From IMG/VR virus record IMGVR_UViG_2778261177_000008: a DNA stretch of 8,953 nucleotides. One strand, written 5' to 3'. Source of the DNA: a virus (lineage: Duplodnaviria; Heunggongvirae; Uroviricota; Caudoviricetes). The notes under the pieces are model-generated. The model did not search any database. It had not been told where the DNA came from and saw only the letters and a program-made list of their open reading frames with translations. Position numbers and translations under genes: made by a program. Below are positions 965-8,953 of this stretch, piece by piece. How positions within the stretch are numbered: position 1 is the first letter of the stretch; every line of letters starts with the position of its first letter.

Positions 965-1741
965 TTACTTGATAAATCCTGCCGCCTTTCCCCGCCTGTA
1001 TTCCTCCATCAGCCACTGCGCCGGTGTTATTCCCCCAAGGGTGGCGGCGTTAGGCATGCACCCGAAACTTCGCCATGGTGGATGGTAAACGTCTCTCCCT
1101 GTGTCCGGAGGTGTACTCATGGGTTCTGGCTTTGCCTGTATGCTGATCACCGGATCGGGTATCTGCTGTCCGGAAGCCACCTTTTTCGCCCAATCATCGA
1201 GCAGCCTGCGAGCGTGTTTCTCAACCTCAATCTCGCTAAGCTGGCGCTGATACATTGCACGGCGGGTATCACATACGACCCAGTACATAACCGGATGTCG
1301 CCACGGGAATATTTCGGGACCACCAGGATATAAACTTTTTTCCTTGCTGTACCGGTGAAACTCCGCCATCACATCGTCAATGGTGACGCCAAGAACCATC
1401 TTGCTGTCTTTACACCACTTGATGAATTGCCCTGGCGACGGCCAGAACGGAGATTCACTGGCGCGGGCGTGGCGCATACCAGCGTTAACCTGTTCCATTG
1501 TAGTGATCCCATTCTCCAGAAACGCAAGCATCCATTGCTTACGGAATTCATTAAGTTTGTTCTGCTCCCTTATGGTCGAAACGCTTGCAGGAAATGCAGC
1601 CTGTAACTGGACAAATAGTTCATTGAAAATTCTAGCAACCTGCTCCTTTTTGCCATTGCTGTCACGCCGCTCTTCATGCACAGCAACACCATGCTCACGT
1701 AAGCGATCGTACTCATTGAGAAGTTCTGGAGTTGATTTCAT
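965..1741 (-). CDS. Replication protein P-like (DnaB helicase loader)
   Basis: 258-aa ORF. The segment FPASVSTIREQNKLNEFRKQWMLAFLENGITTMEQVNAGMRHARASESPFWPSPGQFIKWC closely parallels lambda P as I recall it (FPAS...QW.LAF.ENGITTMEQVNAGMR...PF.PSPGQF..WC). SD AAGGGG 6 nt upstream of ATG (1741-1739). Start overlaps the upstream O-like gene by 29 nt. Confidence 0.85.
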   Translation of the reverse strand: MKSTPELLNEYDRLREHGVAVHEERRDSNGKKEQVARIFNELFVQLQAAFPASVSTIREQNKLNEFRKQWMLAFLENGITTMEQVNAGMRHARASESPFWPSPGQFIKWCKDSKMVLGVTIDDVMAEFHRYSKEKSLYPGGPEIFPWRHPVMYWVVCDTRRAMYQRQLSEIEVEKHARRLLDDWAKKVASGQQIPDPVISIQAKPEPMSTPPDTGRDVYHPPWRSFGCMPNAATLGGITPAQWLMEEYRRGKAAGFIK

Positions 1742-2543
1742 CCCACACCCCTTCTATCCAGTCAGTGTTATTCCAGTCAAGCTCATCGCTTTTCCCGGCA
1801 TTTTTTGATTTTCCCCTGATATGATTTACGTGCCTGGCGAATTTTTGTTCCCACTGAACCTGCGTGAACACTTTGCCCTCAGCCATCCAGTAATCCCGGA
1901 ATGCAGCAAGTTCAGCAGGTGTAAATTCCGGTTCCGGCAGGGCCGTTCCCCACAGCGCAGCACGCCGCCGAAAATCTGGCGACGGTAGCCAGCCATCTGT
2001 CATCGGAAATTTCCCGATGGGTTCACTCAGGCCATCCAGAAATTCAGGTTCTGCCACCTGCAACGGCGTACTGTTCGCTTCACTGGTCGGAGCACCCTCG
2101 CGCACGTGCGCTATGTGTGGGGTTTTATATATATCCTCCTCTTCCTCTTCCTCTGGTAACTCCTTTTGTAACGCTGTTGGCGTTACTTTTTGCGTTACTC
2201 GTTTTCGATGCTCTGCCACTCTTCTATTCGTAAGTGCACGTTTTTTCGATGATTCTCCATTGTGTCGCTCAAAGTTTGGAAGAATTAGTTTGCCGTCATG
2301 ATAAGCAAGCCATCCGACGCTAATGAGGGCGTCAGCAAATCCTGTAATAAAAGCGAGTCTATCAAGTACTCCTTTTGTAACGCTGCCAGCGTTACCGTCT
2401 ATTGTTTGCTGGTCAGCCCATGCCCATATACGAACCAGCTTTCCAAGAACAGCATCTGGATCAATACCCAGAATTTCTGCTATCTGAAAAATTTCAGGTT
2501 TATCAGGAGTGATAACTTCAACCTTAATCCAGCTGCTTGCCAT
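1713..2543 (-). CDS. Replication initiator / replisome organizer (O-equivalent) with DnaT-like C-terminal domain
   Basis: ORF track gives 1713..2561 with a GTG start; I prefer ATG at 2543-2541 (MASSWIKV...), which has SD GAGGGG about 6 nt upstream. The C-terminal GKFPMTDGWLPSPDFRRRAALWGTALPEPEFTPAELAAFRDYWMAEGKVFTQVQWEQKFARHV closely matches E. coli DnaT as I recall it ([26 protein letters not shown]...[20 protein letters not shown]). An acidic EEEEEED linker separates the two halves. Sits immediately upstream of the P-like gene, as O does in lambda. Confidence 0.8.
   Translation of the reverse strand: MASSWIKVEVITPDKPEIFQIAEILGIDPDAVLGKLVRIWAWADQQTIDGNAGSVTKGVLDRLAFITGFADALISVGWLAYHDGKLILPNFERHNGESSKKRALTNRRVAEHRKRVTQKVTPTALQKELPEEEEEEDIYKTPHIAHVREGAPTSEANSTPLQVAEPEFLDGLSEPIGKFPMTDGWLPSPDFRRRAALWGTALPEPEFTPAELAAFRDYWMAEGKVFTQVQWEQKFARHVNHIRGKSKNAGKSDELDWNNTDWIEGVWDEINSRTSQ
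2160..2405. repeat. Iteron-like repeats (putative replication origin) inside the O-equivalent gene
   Basis: Two perfect 19-bp palindromes GTAACGC-N5-GCGTTAC at 2168-2186 and 2387-2405, plus an extra GCGTTAC at 2192-2198. Both palindromes sit in a shared 17-bp direct repeat ctccttttgtaacgctg (2160-2176 and 2379-2395). A short AT-rich tract TTTTATATATAT lies at 2123-2134. Confidence 0.6.
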
Positions 2544-2736
2544 AGGTTTCCCCTCTTGCACTCTTTAGTGCACAAGCAAATTCATTACGATGGCGGTTGG
2601 CGCTATTCATTGCACATTCAACACATGTTCCGTTCAGAACATACCTTTCAGAGAGATGGCCGTGACGGCACCGCTTTCCTGTGAAATAGCGATTTAACCC
2701 GGCTTTTGCGGCCTCCATTCTGGTTACTATCTTCAA
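2524..2736 (-). CDS. Small putative zinc-binding protein in the cII-equivalent position
   Basis: 64-70 aa ORF; start is either TTG at 2736-2734 (SD AAGGGG about 8 nt upstream) or ATG at 2718-2716. Cys/His cluster CRHGHLSERYVLNGTCVEC suggests a zinc ribbon. Overlaps the start of the O-like gene by 20 nt. No confident family match. Confidence 0.45.
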   Translation of the reverse strand: MKIVTRMEAAKAGLNRYFTGKRCRHGHLSERYVLNGTCVECAMNSANRHRNEFACALKSARGETYGKQLD

Positions 2737-3140: not shown

Positions 3141-3214
3141 ATAATAAATATTCACCCATAAGGTAACAAAAATCAAGGATAGTTACCTATGAGGTGCATT
3201 TACCTGATGGGTAA
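3141..3214. promoter_or_regulatory. Divergent promoter/operator region (OR-like) between the cro-like and repressor genes
   Basis: Three operator-like palindromes: 3152-3166 (TCACCcataaGGTAA), 3183-3197 (TTACCtatgaGGTGC) and 3200-3214 (TTACCtgatgGGTAA, perfect). Centres are spaced 31 and 17 bp apart. Leftward promoter candidates on the minus strand: -35 TTGATT (plus 3171-3176) or TTGTTA (plus 3164-3169), with -10 TATTAT (plus 3141-3146). The site at 3152-3166 overlaps the -35/spacer. Confidence 0.6.
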
Positions 3215-3269: not shown

Positions 3270-3854
3270 ATGAAAAGTATCCAGGACGTCCGCAGGCAAA
3301 ATCTCAACGACTTGATCGACCGTGAATTCAATGGTGTTCAGACGCGGATGGCAGAAAAACTTGGAACTCAGGCAAATCTGGTAAACCGCTGGGCTCTTGG
3401 CAAGAAGGTTATCGGCGACCAGGTTGCGCGAAAAATTGAAGCTGCCGCCAATAAACCCCGTAACTGGCTTGATATCGATCGCTCGCTTTCTCAGGAAGGT
3501 TTTCAGCCTGTCGGCCCAAGCGACATTGGCCAGCTGGCGGCTCACAACCTGGAACGCTGGATGAGCGAAAGCCGCGACCTTTCAACACAGGGAAAACTTC
3601 ACCGCGCATCCGGCGTAGCCCAGGTGACAATCAGCCGCCTGTTAAACAATGAGGTCAGCGTTTCCATTTCCACCCTGGAGAATGTTGCATCCGCATTCGG
3701 GCGTCACGGCTATGAATTACTGATTCACCCGCACGACCCTGCGACCATCAACTATGATCGCTCGCGCTACGCATTGTTACCCGAAACCGAGAAAGCAAAG
3801 ATCGAAAGTTACATTGAATTTGTCATCAACCAGAACGAAAAAAGCAAACAATAA
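3270..3854 (+). CDS. Putative prophage repressor (CI-equivalent) with two tandem HTH_XRE-type domains
   Basis: 194-aa ORF with two HTH-like segments (GVQTRMAEKLGTQANLVNRWALGKK and LHRASGVAQVTISRLLNNEVS). No recognisable LexA-like S24 peptidase domain. Sits between the operator cluster and a strong terminator, divergent from the cro-like gene. No good SD: GAGG is 14 nt upstream of the ATG. Confidence 0.7.
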   Translation: MKSIQDVRRQNLNDLIDREFNGVQTRMAEKLGTQANLVNRWALGKKVIGDQVARKIEAAANKPRNWLDIDRSLSQEGFQPVGPSDIGQLAAHNLERWMSESRDLSTQGKLHRASGVAQVTISRLLNNEVSVSISTLENVASAFGRHGYELLIHPHDPATINYDRSRYALLPETEKAKIESYIEFVINQNEKSKQ

Positions 3855-3874
3855 AACTATAGTTTTCAGCAAGT

Positions 3875-3898
3875 AAGCCGCCTCATGGCGGCTTTTTT
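3875..3898 (+). terminator. Rho-independent terminator after the repressor gene
   Basis: GC-rich 8-bp stem AAGCCGCC (3875-3882), loop TCAT, GGCGGCTT (3887-3894), running into TTTTTT (3893-3898). Lies 20 nt downstream of the repressor stop TAA (3852-3854). Confidence 0.75.
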
Positions 3899-3911
3899 AT
3901 TGCCAGATAGA

Positions 3912-3988
3912 TTACCTTACGGGTAATTTTTTTAACTCATATCTATTGACACCAAACCAAATAAGCATAATTATTACCTCAACGGTAA
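3912..3988 (+). promoter_or_regulatory. pL-like early-left promoter with two flanking operators
   Basis: Perfect palindromes at 3912-3926 (TTACCttacgGGTAA) and 3974-3988 (TTACCtcaacGGTAA), with consensus -35 TTGACA at 3946-3951. The -10 is AT-rich (AATTAT at 3969-3974 with a 17-nt spacer) and overlaps the second operator. A GGTAA half-site lies at 3996-4000. Spacing is operator, 19 nt, -35, 22 nt, operator. Confidence 0.65.
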
Positions 3989-4007
3989 CAAACCGAGGTA
4001 ACAAGTT

Positions 4008-4160
4008 ATGCAGTGGAAAATCATCAACGGTTGGTACTGCGTTACTGCATGCGGATTCATGAGCTGGAAGTTCCGCACCTTACAGGAAGGCATTAAGTGG
4101 GCTTTCGTCAGCAAAGAAGCTCGCGATGTGGCCAACGATAACGAGATATGGGAGGGCTGA
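4008..4160 (+). CDS. Small hypothetical protein (50 aa), first ORF of the early-left operon
   Basis: ATG at 4008 with GAGG 9 nt upstream; 50 codons, stop TGA at 4158-4160. Sequence MQWKIINGWYCVTACGFMSWKFRTLQEGIKWAFVSKEARDVANDNEIWEG is Trp-rich with a hydrophobic N-terminal segment. Too short for the ORF track. Not Arg-rich, so not N-like. Confidence 0.4.
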   Translation: MQWKIINGWYCVTACGFMSWKFRTLQEGIKWAFVSKEARDVANDNEIWEG

Positions 4161-4162
4161 TA

Positions 4163-4462
4163 ATGAACGTTAATCAGCAGAAAAATCTTCAAAAAATCAT
4201 GCTGGCATTCGACAAGGACTACCGTCTGTCAGAACAGCTATATGACCGACAAGTTGAACTGATTGAGAGTATCCGGCTTCATCAACTGGCATCAACTTTC
4301 GACGTTGTAACAGTTAAAGGCGTTCGCCAGGAAGTACTGGAGGCCGCTAAAGACAGCCCTGAGTTCGAAGAACTGATGGATTCCTACCGGCGCGAGGCAA
4401 TGGCAATTATCGCCCGCTGGGATCTGGCTGATCAGCTTGATGGGCAGAGGGACGCGGCATGA
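4163..4462 (+). CDS. Hypothetical phage protein (99 aa)
   Basis: ORF track starts at 4148, but ATG 4163 has a strong SD GGAGGG (4151-4156) and begins 2 nt after the upstream stop. The stop overlaps the exonuclease start (ATGA at 4459-4462). No family recognised. Confidence 0.55.
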   Translation: MNVNQQKNLQKIMLAFDKDYRLSEQLYDRQVELIESIRLHQLASTFDVVTVKGVRQEVLEAAKDSPEFEELMDSYRREAMAIIARWDLADQLDGQRDAA

Positions 4463-5280
4463 ATCCGGGAATTTATTTCGATATCAGCAACGAGGACTAC
4501 CACGCCGGTGACGGCGTGAGTAAGTCGCAGCTAGATATGGTGGCTAAGAACCCTGCCCTTCTGAAATGGGTGAAGGCTGCTCCGGAAGACGAAGAGAAGA
4601 AGTCTGCACTGGACATGGGTACTGCTCTGCACTGTCTGCTTCTGGAACCTGGAGAGTTTGACAAACGCTTCATCGTTTCACCGAAATTCGATCGTCGGAC
4701 AAAACAAGGTAAAGCTGACGAAGAGGCATTTATTCGTGATGTAGCGGATATGGGGATTTCGGTACTTGATGCAGAGCAGTGGCGAAAACTGGAGCTGATG
4801 CGTGATAGCGCAATGGCTCACCCGGCGGCACGCTGGATGTTGGAAGCACCTGGTTACTGCGAAGCATCAATGTACTGGAACGATGAAGAGACGGGTGAGT
4901 TGTGCCGAATTCGTCCAGACAAATGGCTGAACGAGCACAACGTGATCGTCGACGTGAAAAAGGTTGCAGATATGGACCGTTTTGCACGCCACATCGAGGA
5001 ATTCCGCTACCACGTGCAGGACGCAATGTACCGCGAAGGCGCAATGAGGGTTACTGGTCAGCCGCATGGTTTTTTCTTTCTTGCCGTGAGCGAAAGCATT
5101 GATTGTGGTCGGTATCCGGTACGCGTGTTCGAGCTGGATGCGCCAGATGTCGATGCTGGGCACGCTCTGTTCCGCCGGGATCTGAATACCTATCACGAAT
5201 GCCGCATCAACGATGAATGGGGCGGAGTGGAAATTATTAAACGCCCTGACTGGGCACGTAAACAGGATATGTACGTATGA
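4459..5280 (+). CDS. PD-(D/E)xK-family exonuclease (RecE / exodeoxyribonuclease VIII-like domain), recombination partner of the annealase
   Basis: 273-aa ORF. N-terminal GIYFDISNEDYHAGDGVSKSQLDMV and the motif IRPDKW...VIVDVKK are characteristic of the RecE-like PDDEXK exonuclease family found in prophages (from memory). Translationally coupled to the downstream annealase gene (ATGA at 5277-5280). SD GAGGGA about 8 nt upstream. Confidence 0.7.
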   Translation: MNPGIYFDISNEDYHAGDGVSKSQLDMVAKNPALLKWVKAAPEDEEKKSALDMGTALHCLLLEPGEFDKRFIVSPKFDRRTKQGKADEEAFIRDVADMGISVLDAEQWRKLELMRDSAMAHPAARWMLEAPGYCEASMYWNDEETGELCRIRPDKWLNEHNVIVDVKKVADMDRFARHIEEFRYHVQDAMYREGAMRVTGQPHGFFFLAVSESIDCGRYPVRVFELDAPDVDAGHALFRRDLNTYHECRINDEWGGVEIIKRPDWARKQDMYV

Positions 5281-6158
5281 GCAATGATATCGCAATCACA
5301 TCACAACCAGGCGCAACTGTAGGCACTGCTGCGGCAATCTTCAGCCCCGAGGGCATGAATCAACTGGTGCGTTTCGCGGAGTTGATGTCACAAAGCAAAG
5401 CGACTGTACCGAAACATCTTGAAGGCAAACCTGCCGATTGCCTGGCGGTGACCATGCAGGCGGCACAGTGGGGAATGAACCCTTTCGCCGTGGCGCAGAA
5501 AACGCATGTGGTAAACGGAACGTTAGGCTACGAAGCACAGTTGGTAAACGCGGTCGTATCCTCTTCCAGCCTGCTGGCGACACGCCTGAATTATCGCTGG
5601 AGCGGTGACTGGTCGAATGTTAACGGCAAAACAGATAAATCACCGAATCTGACGGTAACTGTGTCAGCAGTTCTTAAAGGAGAAGCAGAACCCCGTGAGC
5701 TTACCATCAGTATGGCGCAAGCCGGAGTGCGTAACTCTCCATTGTGGGAACAGGATCCGCGCCAGCAACTTGCCTATCTTTGCACGAAACGATGGGCTCG
5801 CCTGCACGCTCCTGATGTACTTCTCGGTGTTTACACCCCAGACGAATTACAGGAAACGGCACCGCGCGTTGAGCGAGACATTACTCCGCAAACGACCACT
5901 GCTGCGGGAATGAACAGTCTGATCAACGCTAAACCAGCGAAAAAGCCTGATGAGCAAACGCGTAAAGCGGATAGCCGTGATCCAGAAGAAATGCTGATGG
6001 CCTTTACCAGCGCAGCGATGAATTACAGCACTGTCTCCGAACTGGATAAGGCTTACAAATACATTGCACAAAAACTTTCAGATGATGACGAACTGCTGGC
6101 AAAAGCCACCGACGTTTACAGCGTTCGTCGGGAAGAATTAAACGAAACATCTATGTAA
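5277..6158 (+). CDS. Single-strand annealing recombinase, Bet/Red-beta-like
   Basis: 293-aa ORF. Shares with lambda Bet, as I recall it, the N-terminal pattern ...A.Q.G.NP... (CLAVTMQAAQWGMNPFAV) and the C-terminal ERDITP motif (VERDITPQ here, PERDITPV in Bet). Immediately follows, and is coupled to, the exonuclease gene. Confidence 0.75.
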   Translation: MSNDIAITSQPGATVGTAAAIFSPEGMNQLVRFAELMSQSKATVPKHLEGKPADCLAVTMQAAQWGMNPFAVAQKTHVVNGTLGYEAQLVNAVVSSSSLLATRLNYRWSGDWSNVNGKTDKSPNLTVTVSAVLKGEAEPRELTISMAQAGVRNSPLWEQDPRQQLAYLCTKRWARLHAPDVLLGVYTPDELQETAPRVERDITPQTTTAAGMNSLINAKPAKKPDEQTRKADSRDPEEMLMAFTSAAMNYSTVSELDKAYKYIAQKLSDDDELLAKATDVYSVRREELNETSM

Positions 6159-6207
6159 CCACCACCGCGGCGCCATACGCGCCGCACTGCAACCAAGAGA
6201 GGTATTT

Positions 6208-6456
6208 ATGAAAGGTGCATTAGGTAAGAAGGAACTCCTGGCGGTGGTGCCACTGTCATGGAGCACTATCGACCGTATGGAGCGCGCAGGGGAATTTCCT
6301 AAACGCTGGTATATCACCGATAAACGCTGCGCATGGAACCGTGATGAAGTTGAGCGTTGGCTTGATGAACGTCAGGCAGCAAGCCCGGCAGAGTTCCAGG
6401 GTAAAAAACCTCCTGTTCAGCAACGTGTATATCGTCCCGTGAGCAACGCGGCATGA
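6208..6456 (+). CDS. AlpA-family prophage regulatory protein / putative excisionase (MerR-like HTH)
   Basis: 82-aa ORF with SD AGAGAGG 5 nt upstream. The pattern LSWSTIDRMERAGEFPKRWYITDKRCAWNRDEVERWLDERQ fits the AlpA/Xis-like winged-helix family (FP+..........W...E...W...R). Lies between the recombination genes and the integrase side, as xis does in lambda. Confidence 0.7.
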   Translation: MKGALGKKELLAVVPLSWSTIDRMERAGEFPKRWYITDKRCAWNRDEVERWLDERQAASPAEFQGKKPPVQQRVYRPVSNAA

Positions 6457-6565
6457 GTGTGCTGCTAAGGCACTGGAGCAAATGGTCAGGATGGTACTTA
6501 TTCCTAGCCTCTGTTTCAGCATGGCTTTATCTGCTGGCATTAATTTTCAGAGAGGGTTGGATTAA

Positions 6566-6865
6566 GTGAGAAAGTTAAGCCGACTTGAAAAATATCACAT
6601 GAACAAGGTTTCAATGCGCAGTCCGTCAAAGATTGTCGCCGTTACTCCTGCGGCGATAGAGATCGAAAAACGCGCGATTGAAAGAGAGAAAAAAGGGCAG
6701 TTCCGCATTGCCGCTCACCTTTGGCTTCAGTGTATGGATGTTGCTTCTGGTGATGTTGAGCGTGCAAGGATCGCGGTTCGCAGGGACCAATGTATCACAA
6801 AAGGTAACGGCCTTCGCCGTGGCGACTATAGCGGCATAGGATGTTGTGGGGTGGTTTATGACTAA
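6566..6865 (+). CDS. Small regulatory protein, PerC-like (tentative)
   Basis: 99-aa ORF; GTG start at 6566 with GAGGG about 9 nt upstream (alternative ATG at 6599). The segment EKKGQFRIAAHLWLQCMDVA...ERARIAVRRDQCI resembles the PerC-family motif as I remember it (LE..G.WRRAA..W...M...RR..C); unverified. Stop TAA 6863-6865 overlaps the methyltransferase start. Confidence 0.4.
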   Translation: MRKLSRLEKYHMNKVSMRSPSKIVAVTPAAIEIEKRAIEREKKGQFRIAAHLWLQCMDVASGDVERARIAVRRDQCITKGNGLRRGDYSGIGCCGVVYD

Positions 6866-7508
6866 GAAATACACACTAATCTATGCAGATCCACCCTGGG
6901 TATACCGGGACAAAGCCGCAGATGGTAATCGCGGTGCCGGTTTTAAATATCCGGTTATGAGTGTGCTGGACATCTGCCGCCTTCCTGTGTGGGATTTGGC
7001 CGATGAAAACTGTCTGTTGGCCATGTGGTGGGTGCCAACACAACCACTCGAAGCACTTAAAGTTGTTGAAGCATGGGGATTCCGTCTGATGACCATGAAG
7101 GGCTTCACGTGGATAAAATGTGGTAGTCGACAACCAGATAAACTGGTTATGGGTATGGGTCACATGACTCGCGCCAATAGTGAAGATTGCCTGTTTGCGG
7201 TAAAGGGAAAACTACCTACGCGCATTAATGCAGGGATCGTTCAGTCATTTACCGCACCGCGGCTTGAGCATTCAAGAAAACCAGATATCGTTCGTGAAAA
7301 ACTTGTGCAATTGTTAGGCGATGTTTCTCGCATTGAACTGTTCGCCCGCCAGTCATCTCATGGTTTCGATGTTTGGGGTAATCAGTGCGAAGACCCGGCA
7401 GTGCAACTACATCCTGGATACGCGTTGGATATTGGCGGATTAACAAATGCATTCAGCAATGCTCCGCTGTCACCAACAGACAACCAGGGGCAGGAGCGTG
7501 CAGCATGA
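6858..7508 (+). CDS. MT-A70-family DNA N6-adenine methyltransferase (orphan, phage-type)
   Basis: The N-terminal YTLIYADPPW contains the canonical DPPW catalytic motif of N6-adenine methyltransferases, and the length and layout fit phage MT-A70 enzymes. Start is ATG 6858, or GTG 6846 as in the ORF track. No restriction endonuclease gene is adjacent. Stop TGA 7506-7508 overlaps the next ATG. Confidence 0.8.
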   Translation: MTKKYTLIYADPPWVYRDKAADGNRGAGFKYPVMSVLDICRLPVWDLADENCLLAMWWVPTQPLEALKVVEAWGFRLMTMKGFTWIKCGSRQPDKLVMGMGHMTRANSEDCLFAVKGKLPTRINAGIVQSFTAPRLEHSRKPDIVREKLVQLLGDVSRIELFARQSSHGFDVWGNQCEDPAVQLHPGYALDIGGLTNAFSNAPLSPTDNQGQERAA

Positions 7509-7702: not shown

Positions 7703-8953
7703 TTATTCCCCCGCCATCCACTTCTCAAACTTCGACGGGGAGAACGGAATCAGATCCGTATGCTCCCCGTTAATCCATGAATCAATCATATCGGCCCACT
7801 GCTGCAACATGTAGGCGCGCTGTCTGGCGTATTCCGCTTTGTTATATACGGCGCGCACACCTTTCTGCTCATGTGCCAGAGCCTTTTCAATCCAGTCTGA
7901 AGGATAACCAGCCTCATGCAACAACGTACTGGCTGTACGGCGCATATCGTGTACGGTGAAGTCCTGAATATGCTCACCATCTTCCTTTATTATTTTCACC
8001 GTTCTGTCGATCAGAGAGTTCAGCGCGGCATTAGATAATGGCTTCCGGAAGTTGTAACGACCAGGAACCAGATATTCACTTCCACCAGCGCACATCTGCA
8101 ACCCGACCAATATATCCTGTGCCTGTTTAGGCAGGTAAATAACGTGCGCCCGGCTTCCCTTCATGCGGTCTGAAGGAATTGTCCATGTCCATTTTTTAAA
8201 ATCTATTTCGTCCCACGTTGCATTGGTGAATTCGCCTTTACGAACCATAGTGATAAGCACCAGCTTTAAAGCCATTTTCATAGTGCCCATAGCACCAATG
8301 GCATCCAGCGTGCGGAAGAACAGGCCAATTTCTTCTGGTGTCAGTGTTCGCTCTCGTGGTTTAAATATGGCGATAGACGAAGGTTTAATGTCAGCCGCAG
8401 GATTAAACAAACCATGACCACGGTCATTGGCGTGACGGTATACGCTGCTGATGATCTCCCTGGCCTGCACTGCTGTTGCCCGGCCACCGCGTTCGACAAT
8501 CCGGTCACACAAATCACGAACCATCGATGTGGTAATTTCAGCCATCATTTTGTTGCCAAGAACCGGAAGTATGTCACGGTCGATCACTGCCTGCTTCATT
8601 GCGCGGGTACTTTCAGCCAGGATGACGTGTTTCATATAACTGTCGGTATGTACCGCAAACGTCTCGGCACCACGAATCTTTTTTATACCGTCACGTTTAG
8701 CCGCAGCCGGTGACTGGCCTGCTTTAAGCAGCTTCTTTGCAGCAATCAGTTCTTCTCGCGCTTCTGCCAGGCTGATACCGTCACTCCCATACTGCCCGAT
8801 TACCAGCGTTTCGCGGCGACCGTTGATACGGTAGTCGTAGCGAAACGAGACCGTGCCTGACGTAAGCACAGCTACATACAGCCCATCACGATCGGAGACC
8901 TTGTACAGTTTGTCCTGCGGCTTGAGGTTTTTTAATTTTGTATCGGTAAGCAC
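7703..8953 (-). CDS. int: Tyrosine recombinase / integrase, P4 (CP4-57 IntA-like) family; 5' end at or just beyond the window edge
   Basis: 416 codons, open to the window end. The N-terminal LTDTKLKNLKPQDKLYKVSDRDGLYVAVLTSG matches the arm-binding domain of P4-type integrases. The C-terminal region has the HxxR box (HDMRRT) and conserved Tyr-containing region of tyrosine recombinases. The first codon in the window is GTG, so a few N-terminal residues probably lie outside. Confidence 0.9.
   Translation of the reverse strand: MLTDTKLKNLKPQDKLYKVSDRDGLYVAVLTSGTVSFRYDYRINGRRETLVIGQYGSDGISLAEAREELIAAKKLLKAGQSPAAAKRDGIKKIRGAETFAVHTDSYMKHVILAESTRAMKQAVIDRDILPVLGNKMMAEITTSMVRDLCDRIVERGGRATAVQAREIISSVYRHANDRGHGLFNPAADIKPSSIAIFKPRERTLTPEEIGLFFRTLDAIGAMGTMKMALKLVLITMVRKGEFTNATWDEIDFKKWTWTIPSDRMKGSRAHVIYLPKQAQDILVGLQMCAGGSEYLVPGRYNFRKPLSNAALNSLIDRTVKIIKEDGEHIQDFTVHDMRRTASTLLHEAGYPSDWIEKALAHEQKGVRAVYNKAEYARQRAYMLQQWADMIDSWINGEHTDLIPFSPSKFEKWMAGE

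Follow-up and report, generated by a model that had tools for sequence, protein, structure and literature searches.

Two conserved small genes at the head of the early-left operon of a Uetakevirus-type prophage, one encoding a probable remote relative of lambda Gam

The window, meaning the whole 8,953 bp stretch of DNA analysed here, was identified by DNA searches as the immunity and early region of a prophage of the Uetakevirus type (temperate podoviruses related to phiV10 and epsilon15). Its DNA matches phages HEMP4, phiV10 and TL-2011b at 94-95% identity and prophages in E. coli chromosomes at 98%. The locus was found in 563 of 5426 complete E. coli genomes (~10%), and the integrase end of a closely related E. 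coli prophage adjoins guaA. The window begins with the replication genes and a cro-like gene on the minus strand. These are followed on the plus strand by the genes for the repressor, ORF1, ORF2, a nuclease, RecT and an AlpA-type excisionase, and then by those for a 38-aa membrane protein, PerC, an MT-A70 methyltransferase and DUF1382, with the integrase gene last on the minus strand. The features between the repressor and RecT genes are:

3270..3854, plus strand: prophage repressor with two HTH domains, SPC32H/epsilon15 Rep type (Pfam HTH_3, phrog_8)
3875..3894, plus strand: intrinsic terminator ending the repressor transcript, with a G+C-rich stem of 8 bp and then a T run
3912..3926: operator-like inverted repeat TTACC-N5-GGTAA upstream of the -35 hexamer, exact match
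3946..3974, plus strand: early-left (PL-like) sigma-70 promoter, TTGACA at 3946-3951, 17 nt, AATTAT at 3969-3974, 10 of 12 consensus matches
3974..3988: second operator TTACC-N5-GGTAA, overlapping the -10 hexamer and the transcription start region, exact match, conserved in the DNA alignment
4008..4160, plus strand: ORF1, 50 aa with 5 Trp (phiV10 p39, epsilon15 gp37, phrog_898), ATG at 4008, TGA at 4158-4160
4163..4462, plus strand: ORF2, 99 aa (phiV10 p38, epsilon15 gp36, phrog_856), ATG at 4163, TGA at 4460-4462
4459..5280, plus strand: RecE-like PD-(D/E)XK exonuclease, DUF3799 (Pfam PF12684, E 2e-22; phrog_412, E 4e-125)
5277..6158, plus strand: RecT single-strand annealing protein (Pfam RecT, E 1e-31; phrog_561, E 2e-145)

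The repressor is 99.5% identical to phiV10 p40. The replication initiator (1713-2561, minus strand) aligns with that of phiV10 only over the C-terminal ~80 residues (46% identity), unlike the P-like protein and the immunity region, which are close to phiV10; hence, this prophage carries an exchanged replication origin module. The position of lambda cII is occupied by a 70-aa protein (2524-2736, minus strand) with a Cys/His-rich motif, RCRHGH...CVEC, and no HTH, which is kept in all relatives (epsilon15 gp40).

The initial annotation had placed two small ORFs at the head of an early-left operon. The promoter, the two operators and the repressor terminator all lie directly upstream of ORF1, the phiV10 record annotates a terminator at the position matching 3875-3894, and the curated epsilon15 record marks repressor-binding sites at equivalent places. 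The placement is therefore correct. The -35 hexamer and the surrounding ATTATTACC are kept in five genera in the DNA alignment. Seven TTACC-N5-GGTAA sites were observed in the window, against 0.17 expected. The five outside PL lie at 851-865, 913-927, 2815-2829, 3152-3166 and 3200-3214: two between the cro-like gene and the repressor gene, two just upstream of the minus-strand gene 500-847, which corresponds by position and size to the phiV10 gene annotated as DUF1064, and one near a terminator-like hairpin at 2844-2863. Repressor control may thus reach beyond the two divergent early promoters.

ORF1 and ORF2 are real genes under purifying selection. GAGG at 3995-3998 precedes the start codon of ORF1 and GGAGG at 4151-4155 that of ORF2, only 2 nt separate the two genes, and the stop codon of ORF2 overlaps the start codon of the nuclease gene in an ATGA at 4459. 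The RecT gene is coupled to the nuclease gene by a further ATGA overlap. Hence, the translational link to downstream recombination genes proposed in the initial annotation holds, except that these encode the RecE-like DUF3799 nuclease and RecT and are not exo and bet. In the phiV10 annotation, nuclease and RecT appear as one fused RecE-RecT protein (phiV10 locus 5601-7361), as against two genes in the window and in RefSeq prophages; the fusion could be genuine or an artefact of sequencing or annotation. A longer, 104-aa reading of ORF2 from ATG 4148 was rejected, as the homologues begin at the equivalent MN(I/V)QQ, sometimes with GTG. Substitutions were analysed in nine lineages for ORF1 and eight for ORF2, drawn from Escherichia, Salmonella, Klebsiella, Enterobacter, Citrobacter, Pseudocitrobacter, Scandinavium and 'Ca. 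Erwinia dacicola'. In a six-frame analysis, frame +1 alone was free of stop codons and had the lowest pN/pS (0.18 for ORF1 codons 1-36 and 0.41 for ORF2), and dN/dS across lineages is ~0.2 for both genes. The antisense ORF 3974-4192 (minus strand), which is annotated instead of ORF1 in phage Tyrion (Tyrion locus 3751-3963, minus strand), did not withstand this analysis; as selection acts on the plus-strand frame, it is a misannotation. ORF2 and nearly all of its relatives end in Ala-Ala (RDAA, RNAA or RTAA; window 4451-4462). Unrelated early-left proteins of lambda (Ral, Ea10) and P22 (Kil, gp17) also end in -AA (KAA, HAA, TAA), and this shared end may be a C-terminal degradation signal of short-lived early proteins.

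The two genes were found in an identical set of 36 phage records, and relatives occur in 373 (ORF1) and 345 (ORF2) IMG/VR contigs. Both are strongly conserved in related prophages, always in the order ORF1-ORF2, after the repressor gene and before the nuclease and RecT genes. Where complete loci were examined, the nuclease/RecT pair follows ORF2 directly, mostly abutting it, with one inserted ORF between them in three loci. The recombination genes themselves vary. No relatives of the window nuclease and RecT (4459-6158) were detected in epsilon15, in a Klebsiella prophage or at the 'Ca. Erwinia dacicola' locus, and in the first two a YqaJ/lambda-Exo-type nuclease and a divergent RecT replace them. 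ORF1-ORF2 and the AlpA gene, which flank the exchanged module, are unchanged. This exchangeability indicates that ORF1-ORF2 form a unit of their own, bound neither to one nuclease nor to one RecT. The ORF1/ORF2 and ORF2/nuclease junctions also serve as insertion slots for unrelated ORFs that vary by lineage, of 45 aa (CxxC-rich), 57 aa, 84 aa, 96 aa, 101 aa (pI 4.1, phrog_7311) and 330-344 aa (charged coiled-coil, phrog_1376). Searches of Pfam, PHROGs, NCBIfam and PADLOC with the 45-, 84-, 101- and 330-344-aa ORFs, and of PADLOC with the 96-aa ORF, gave no known function; anti-defence cargo is plausible. The gene pair, labelled 'hypothetical', is carried by roughly a tenth of complete E. coli genomes and by many genomes of Salmonella, Klebsiella, Citrobacter and Enterobacter.

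That neither protein belongs to a recognised family was borne out in every library searched. Using HMMER, no match to either was found in Pfam, NCBIfam, PADLOC or PDB sequences, and in PHROGs each matched, over its full length, only a family of unknown function (ORF1, phrog_898, E 2e-38; ORF2, phrog_856, E 7e-55). No functional study of the proteins turned up in the literature under their accessions, phage names or gene names. For ORF2, there was likewise no named relative at HMMER level among 5.8 billion proteins. When 1.84 billion representatives were scanned in full by HMMER with the profile of ORF2, only 34 proteins were recovered, all of them unannotated; 33 of them are no longer than ~136 aa, and the exception is a weakly matched 450-aa repeat protein. 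The Gam sequence models (Pfam PF06064, phrog_259 and NCBIfam) did not match the window ORF2 at E<=0.1, nor any of 40 ORF2 family members at E<=10; as a control, lambda Gam matched phrog_259 at 4e-59.

A relationship to Gam was indicated by profile comparison and suggested by fold searches. ORF2 is acidic (pI 4.7, net charge -6), and its predicted structure is all-helical with moderate confidence (pLDDT 68, and 75-82 at residues 51-90). When the model was searched with Foldseek against 350,542 chains, GamS chains took ranks 1, 2, 6 and 7, with TM scores of 0.44-0.50 and 21% identity at E values of only 1.6-4.5; the viral set BFVD gave nothing below E 1. Profiles were compared by hhalign with a Gam reference alignment of three proteins (lambda, SEN34 and phiSTEC1589). 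A closely related 40-sequence ORF2 alignment gave P 0.011, and 7 of 400 shuffles were as good. With nine distant sequences added (49 in all), the match reached Prob 54%, P 1.3e-4 and a score of 28.2, which none of 600 column-shuffled controls attained (mean 10.9, sd 2.3, maximum 21.2). A non-redundant ten-sequence set gave Prob 80.5% and P 1.3e-5, and a single family member, P0170, gave Prob 76% over 68 columns. The aligned core pairs ORF2 30-85 with GamS 32-89. In a ranking against ORF2 that included 37 early-left decoys from lambda, P22, phi80 and Rac, the Gam homologues were placed 1, 2 and 4. Since the signal rises with the diversity of the family and the register agrees with that of the fold alignments, true remote homology to Gam is indicated. 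ORF2 and GamS are moreover colinear from end to end with small gaps (99 and 98 aa, each beginning MN), and their common motifs, RH, EL.D, G and D(D/S)xEF(Q/E)E...R....IA...ID, take in most of the invariant positions of the ORF2 family. A short match between residues 1-24 of ORF2 and lambda orf61 (Prob 17-27%), 24 columns in a Q/N-rich stretch, was discarded as spurious, and no relationship was found to phi80 GamL or to P22 Abc1, Abc2 and Arf. Nor was either window protein related to RacC, YdaE, KilR, YdaF, YdaG, RcbA, RalR or the RecE N-terminus of Rac.

Thus, ORF2 is probably a previously unrecognised, diverged homologue of lambda Gam. GamS mimics DNA as a dimer and plugs the site at which RecBCD binds DNA ends (PMC5218532). 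By analogy with GamS (PMC5218532), an ORF2 dimer would occupy the DNA-end site of host RecBCD, and possibly that of SbcCD too. Linear phage DNA would thereby be protected, and DNA ends would be left to the phage's own coupled nuclease/RecT pair. A RecBCD inhibitor is present in 203 of 246 recombination modules of enterobacterial lambdoid phages (PMC12315714), and the phiV10 annotation includes no other known RecBCD inhibitor anywhere in the genome. A Gam relative at this position would supply the anti-RecBCD function that the Uetakevirus recombination module otherwise seems to lack. The confidence that ORF2, as a putative inhibitor, does block RecBCD is nevertheless lower than that in its ancestry and falls a little short of even, due to the distribution of Chi sites (GCTGGTGG), which are located as follows:

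Window, minus strand: 8082-8089
phiV10, one strand: 6746, 10214, 12016, 15190, 15605, 17437, 18811, 27791
epsilon15 (positions 1-28000): 6443, 15391, 19262, 21457, 27803, 27911

All eight Chi sites of phiV10 are on the strand of the terminase and structural genes. Dinucleotide shuffles predict 1.35 sites and codon shuffles within genes 1.41; the enrichment over the latter is ~5.7-fold, and none of 2000 codon shuffles reached eight. The six sites in the first 28 kb of epsilon15 are also confined to a single strand. Lambda, in contrast, has no Chi site (PMC12315714), and among lambdoid phages abundant top-strand Chi accompanies the absence of an anti-RecBCD gene (PMC12315714, Table 1). At least four top-strand Chi sites were reported in 14 of 21 nuclease+SAP phages without an inhibitor, as compared with 8 of 102 lambda-type phages with one (PMC12315714, Table 1). 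A Chi-poor genome is a correlate of an anti-RecBCD gene and no strict criterion for one, and phiV10 is not Chi-poor. Chi richness thus lowers the confidence in RecBCD inhibition by ORF2, though not in its Gam ancestry. It is possible that these phages are an exception, that ORF2 acts only early or partially, or that it has been retargeted to SbcCD or a defence nuclease. A Gam-like gene beside enriched Chi is a testable exception to a recently proposed rule.

The last of these readings, in which ORF2 keeps the Gam fold and ancestry without blocking RecBCD, would have the protein directed at SbcCD or at OLD/Gabija-type systems, or modulating RecBCD, while the phage still exploits Chi-activated RecBCD. 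The 5.7-fold enriched, strictly co-oriented Chi sites of phiV10, the similar pattern in epsilon15, the inverse relation reported between Chi content and the presence of anti-RecBCD genes (PMC12315714) and a divergence from Gam beyond HMMER detection would all fit it. Yet ORF2 retains the classical position, length and acidity of Gam, and Chi may be selected in the prophage state rather than in lytic growth. This reading is considered unlikely. Somewhat less likely again is descent unrelated to Gam, ORF2 being a generic helical recombination accessory (like P22 Arf/Abc1 or T4 UvsY) that acts on the nuclease, RecT or ssDNA. Small helical proteins often give spurious fold matches, T4 UvsY is itself among the weak Foldseek matches (ranks 5 and 13), and the gene lies directly upstream of the nuclease/RecT pair and, in the window, extends over the start codon of the nuclease gene. 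Constancy while nuclease and RecT types are swapped would not, however, be expected of a partner-specific cofactor, and the Gam profile signal increases with diversity (P from 0.011 to 1.3e-4 to 1.3e-5) and exceeds every shuffle and almost every decoy. RecBCD blocking by an ORF2 of the Gam lineage remains the preferred reading. The initial annotation had named anti-RecBCD activity as a candidate function by position; a probable remote Gam homologue in this place gives that proposal real support for ORF2, and the Chi-rich genomes are in tension with it.

ORF1 is distinguished by its conservation. Residues 1-25 (MQWKIINGWYCVTACGLMSWKFRTL) are nearly invariant across genera, with a pN/pS of 0.08 at a pS of 0.47 for codons 1-25, whereas the C-terminal tail is relaxed (pN/pS 0.57) and occurs in two versions. 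The N-terminal 25-36 residues are extremely constrained in phages whose neighbouring proteins are only ~50% identical, and ORF1 stays unchanged among phages with repressors only 41-45% identical. As synonymous sites differ at 47%, the invariance of the 5' half reflects selection at the protein level; a nucleotide-level or RNA cause was dismissed on these grounds, and Rfam gave no match. The family is limited to the same phages and has two invariant Cys residues (CxxxC). With 5 Trp in 50 aa, the protein is Trp-rich, as had been described initially, and the segment described as hydrophobic proved to be mildly so: the highest Kyte-Doolittle mean over 19 residues is 0.57 and the minimum Hessa sum +9 kcal/mol, as compared with 2.52 and -3.5 for Hok and 1.92 and -0.9 for the phage's own 38-aa membrane protein. 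A membrane peptide or small membrane toxin was thus excluded by a wide margin, and ORF1 is a soluble protein with no membrane helix. Its AlphaFold model (pLDDT 56, one long helix, no sheet) was too poor for a fold search. From its sequence, with NG and CG turns set between beta-forming runs and an amphipathic helix after them, ORF1 may form a small domain of sheet plus helix.

ORF1 is the first product of the early-left promoter, at the position of lambda kil. When 21 ORF1 sequences were compared with a three-sequence Kil alignment (lambda/P22-type), hhalign gave Prob 0.3% and a score of 9.7, which 99 of 300 shuffles equalled or bettered, and Kil was rejected as a relative. Profile comparisons with N, Ral, Arf, YdaF, YdaG, KilR and others were all negative. 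The Kil-like, host-takeover role suggested in the initial annotation has accordingly gained nothing beyond the position of the gene, similarity to Kil having been tested and found absent. A host-directed early peptide is still the most economical reading, and is put forward tentatively; a Kil-like division block, one specific version of it, is doubtful. The functional part would be the almost invariant N-terminal ~25-36 residues, and the target would most likely be a highly conserved host component engaged early in lytic growth, with no homology favouring any one target. Alternatively, ORF1 could be a DNA- or RNA-binding early-left regulator, with a three-stranded sheet and a helix as in AP2/integrase N-terminal domains, or a CIII-like protease inhibitor, and not a host-killing peptide. 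The gene comes first after the promoter, where lambda has the regulator N, its turn motifs and amphipathic helix would suit such a domain, and by eye its N-terminus resembles that of CIII (MQ[WY]xIxxGW). The likeness to CIII was not upheld, as hhalign gave Prob 0.5% for lambda CIII and <=0.4% for P22 C3, with no match in Pfam. Nothing was obtained for N or other regulators, and Pfam, PDB and NCBIfam had no match. Moreover, the single helix of the low-confidence AlphaFold model includes no sheet, and ORF1 does not change where the repressors diverge. Either role is regarded as quite improbable.

Taken as a whole, an early-left Gam-lineage ORF2 that blocks RecBCD together with a host-acting, soluble ORF1 is the best explanation, and is favoured slightly on balance. 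In a more unusual combination, which is thought unlikely, ORF1 would be a new kind of early peptide with an N-terminal warhead against a host machine conserved in Enterobacterales, and ORF2 a retargeted Gam-fold protein alongside selected, co-oriented Chi. If so, a retargeted Gam-fold ORF2 with selected Chi would be at odds with the 'one or the other' rule published for phages and RecBCD. The initial observation of two small early-left genes is confirmed, and the guess made from their position is borne out in part. The Chi paradox can be tested and the assignment of ORF2 to Gam is of practical use, though nothing in the locus is categorically new. The assignment can serve annotation and recombineering toolkits, and may help to predict which of the defence systems that sense RecBCD inhibition would be triggered by these phages. 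ORF1, as a compact and extremely conserved early peptide, is an inexpensive target in the search for a new phage-host interaction.

Among known systems, the organisation at the head of the operon resembles that of the lambdoid early-left region, with the gene orders kil-gam-bet-exo in lambda and gamL-recT-exo in phi80. Lambda Kil (47 aa, an FtsZ inhibitor) and the Kil proteins of P22, phi80 and Rac (KilR) have, like ORF1, ~50 residues and are expressed from the early-left promoter, and their genes, like ORF1, lie directly upstream of and packed against a gam-type gene. The known Kil proteins are mutually unrelated, and no sequence relationship of theirs to ORF1 was found; position is thus the sole link between Kil and ORF1. 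The early-left recombination module of the temperate phage P22 similarly includes small proteins, Abc2, Abc1 and Arf (47-97 aa), which have no similarity to ORF1 or ORF2 (Prob <=1.2%). Abc2 is basic (pI 8.9), unlike the acidic ORF2, and it hijacks RecBCD rather than blocking it (PMC9836394).

The closest counterpart of ORF2 is lambda Gam (GamS form, residues 41-138; PF06064, phrog_259; PDB 2UUZ and 5MBV), whose fold joins a long N-terminal helix to a helical dimerisation domain. It is acidic, as ORF2 is, and all-helical, as ORF2 is predicted to be, and is likewise encoded directly upstream of a nuclease/annealing-protein pair in a repressor-controlled early-left operon. The two differ in that identity is only ~20% and HMMER Gam models miss ORF2, in that the partners of ORF2 are a RecE-like or YqaJ nuclease followed by RecT, as opposed to bet followed by exo in lambda, and in that ORF2 has no long GamL-type isoform. 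GamL of phi80 (phrog_1050), an inhibitor of host RecBCD and SbcCD, resembles ORF2 in size (93 aa), pI (4.7) and location directly upstream of RecT and exo. It has no detectable similarity to ORF2 (hhalign Prob 0.1-0.8%) and is annotated as toxic without a companion protein (Agt/Mog), of which there is no counterpart beside ORF2. GamL is itself a distant relative of Gam, joined to it by only weak cross-matches between phrog_259 and phrog_1050, which indicates that the Gam lineage can diverge past easy recognition. ORF2 would add to this lineage a third, very divergent branch that current libraries leave unannotated.
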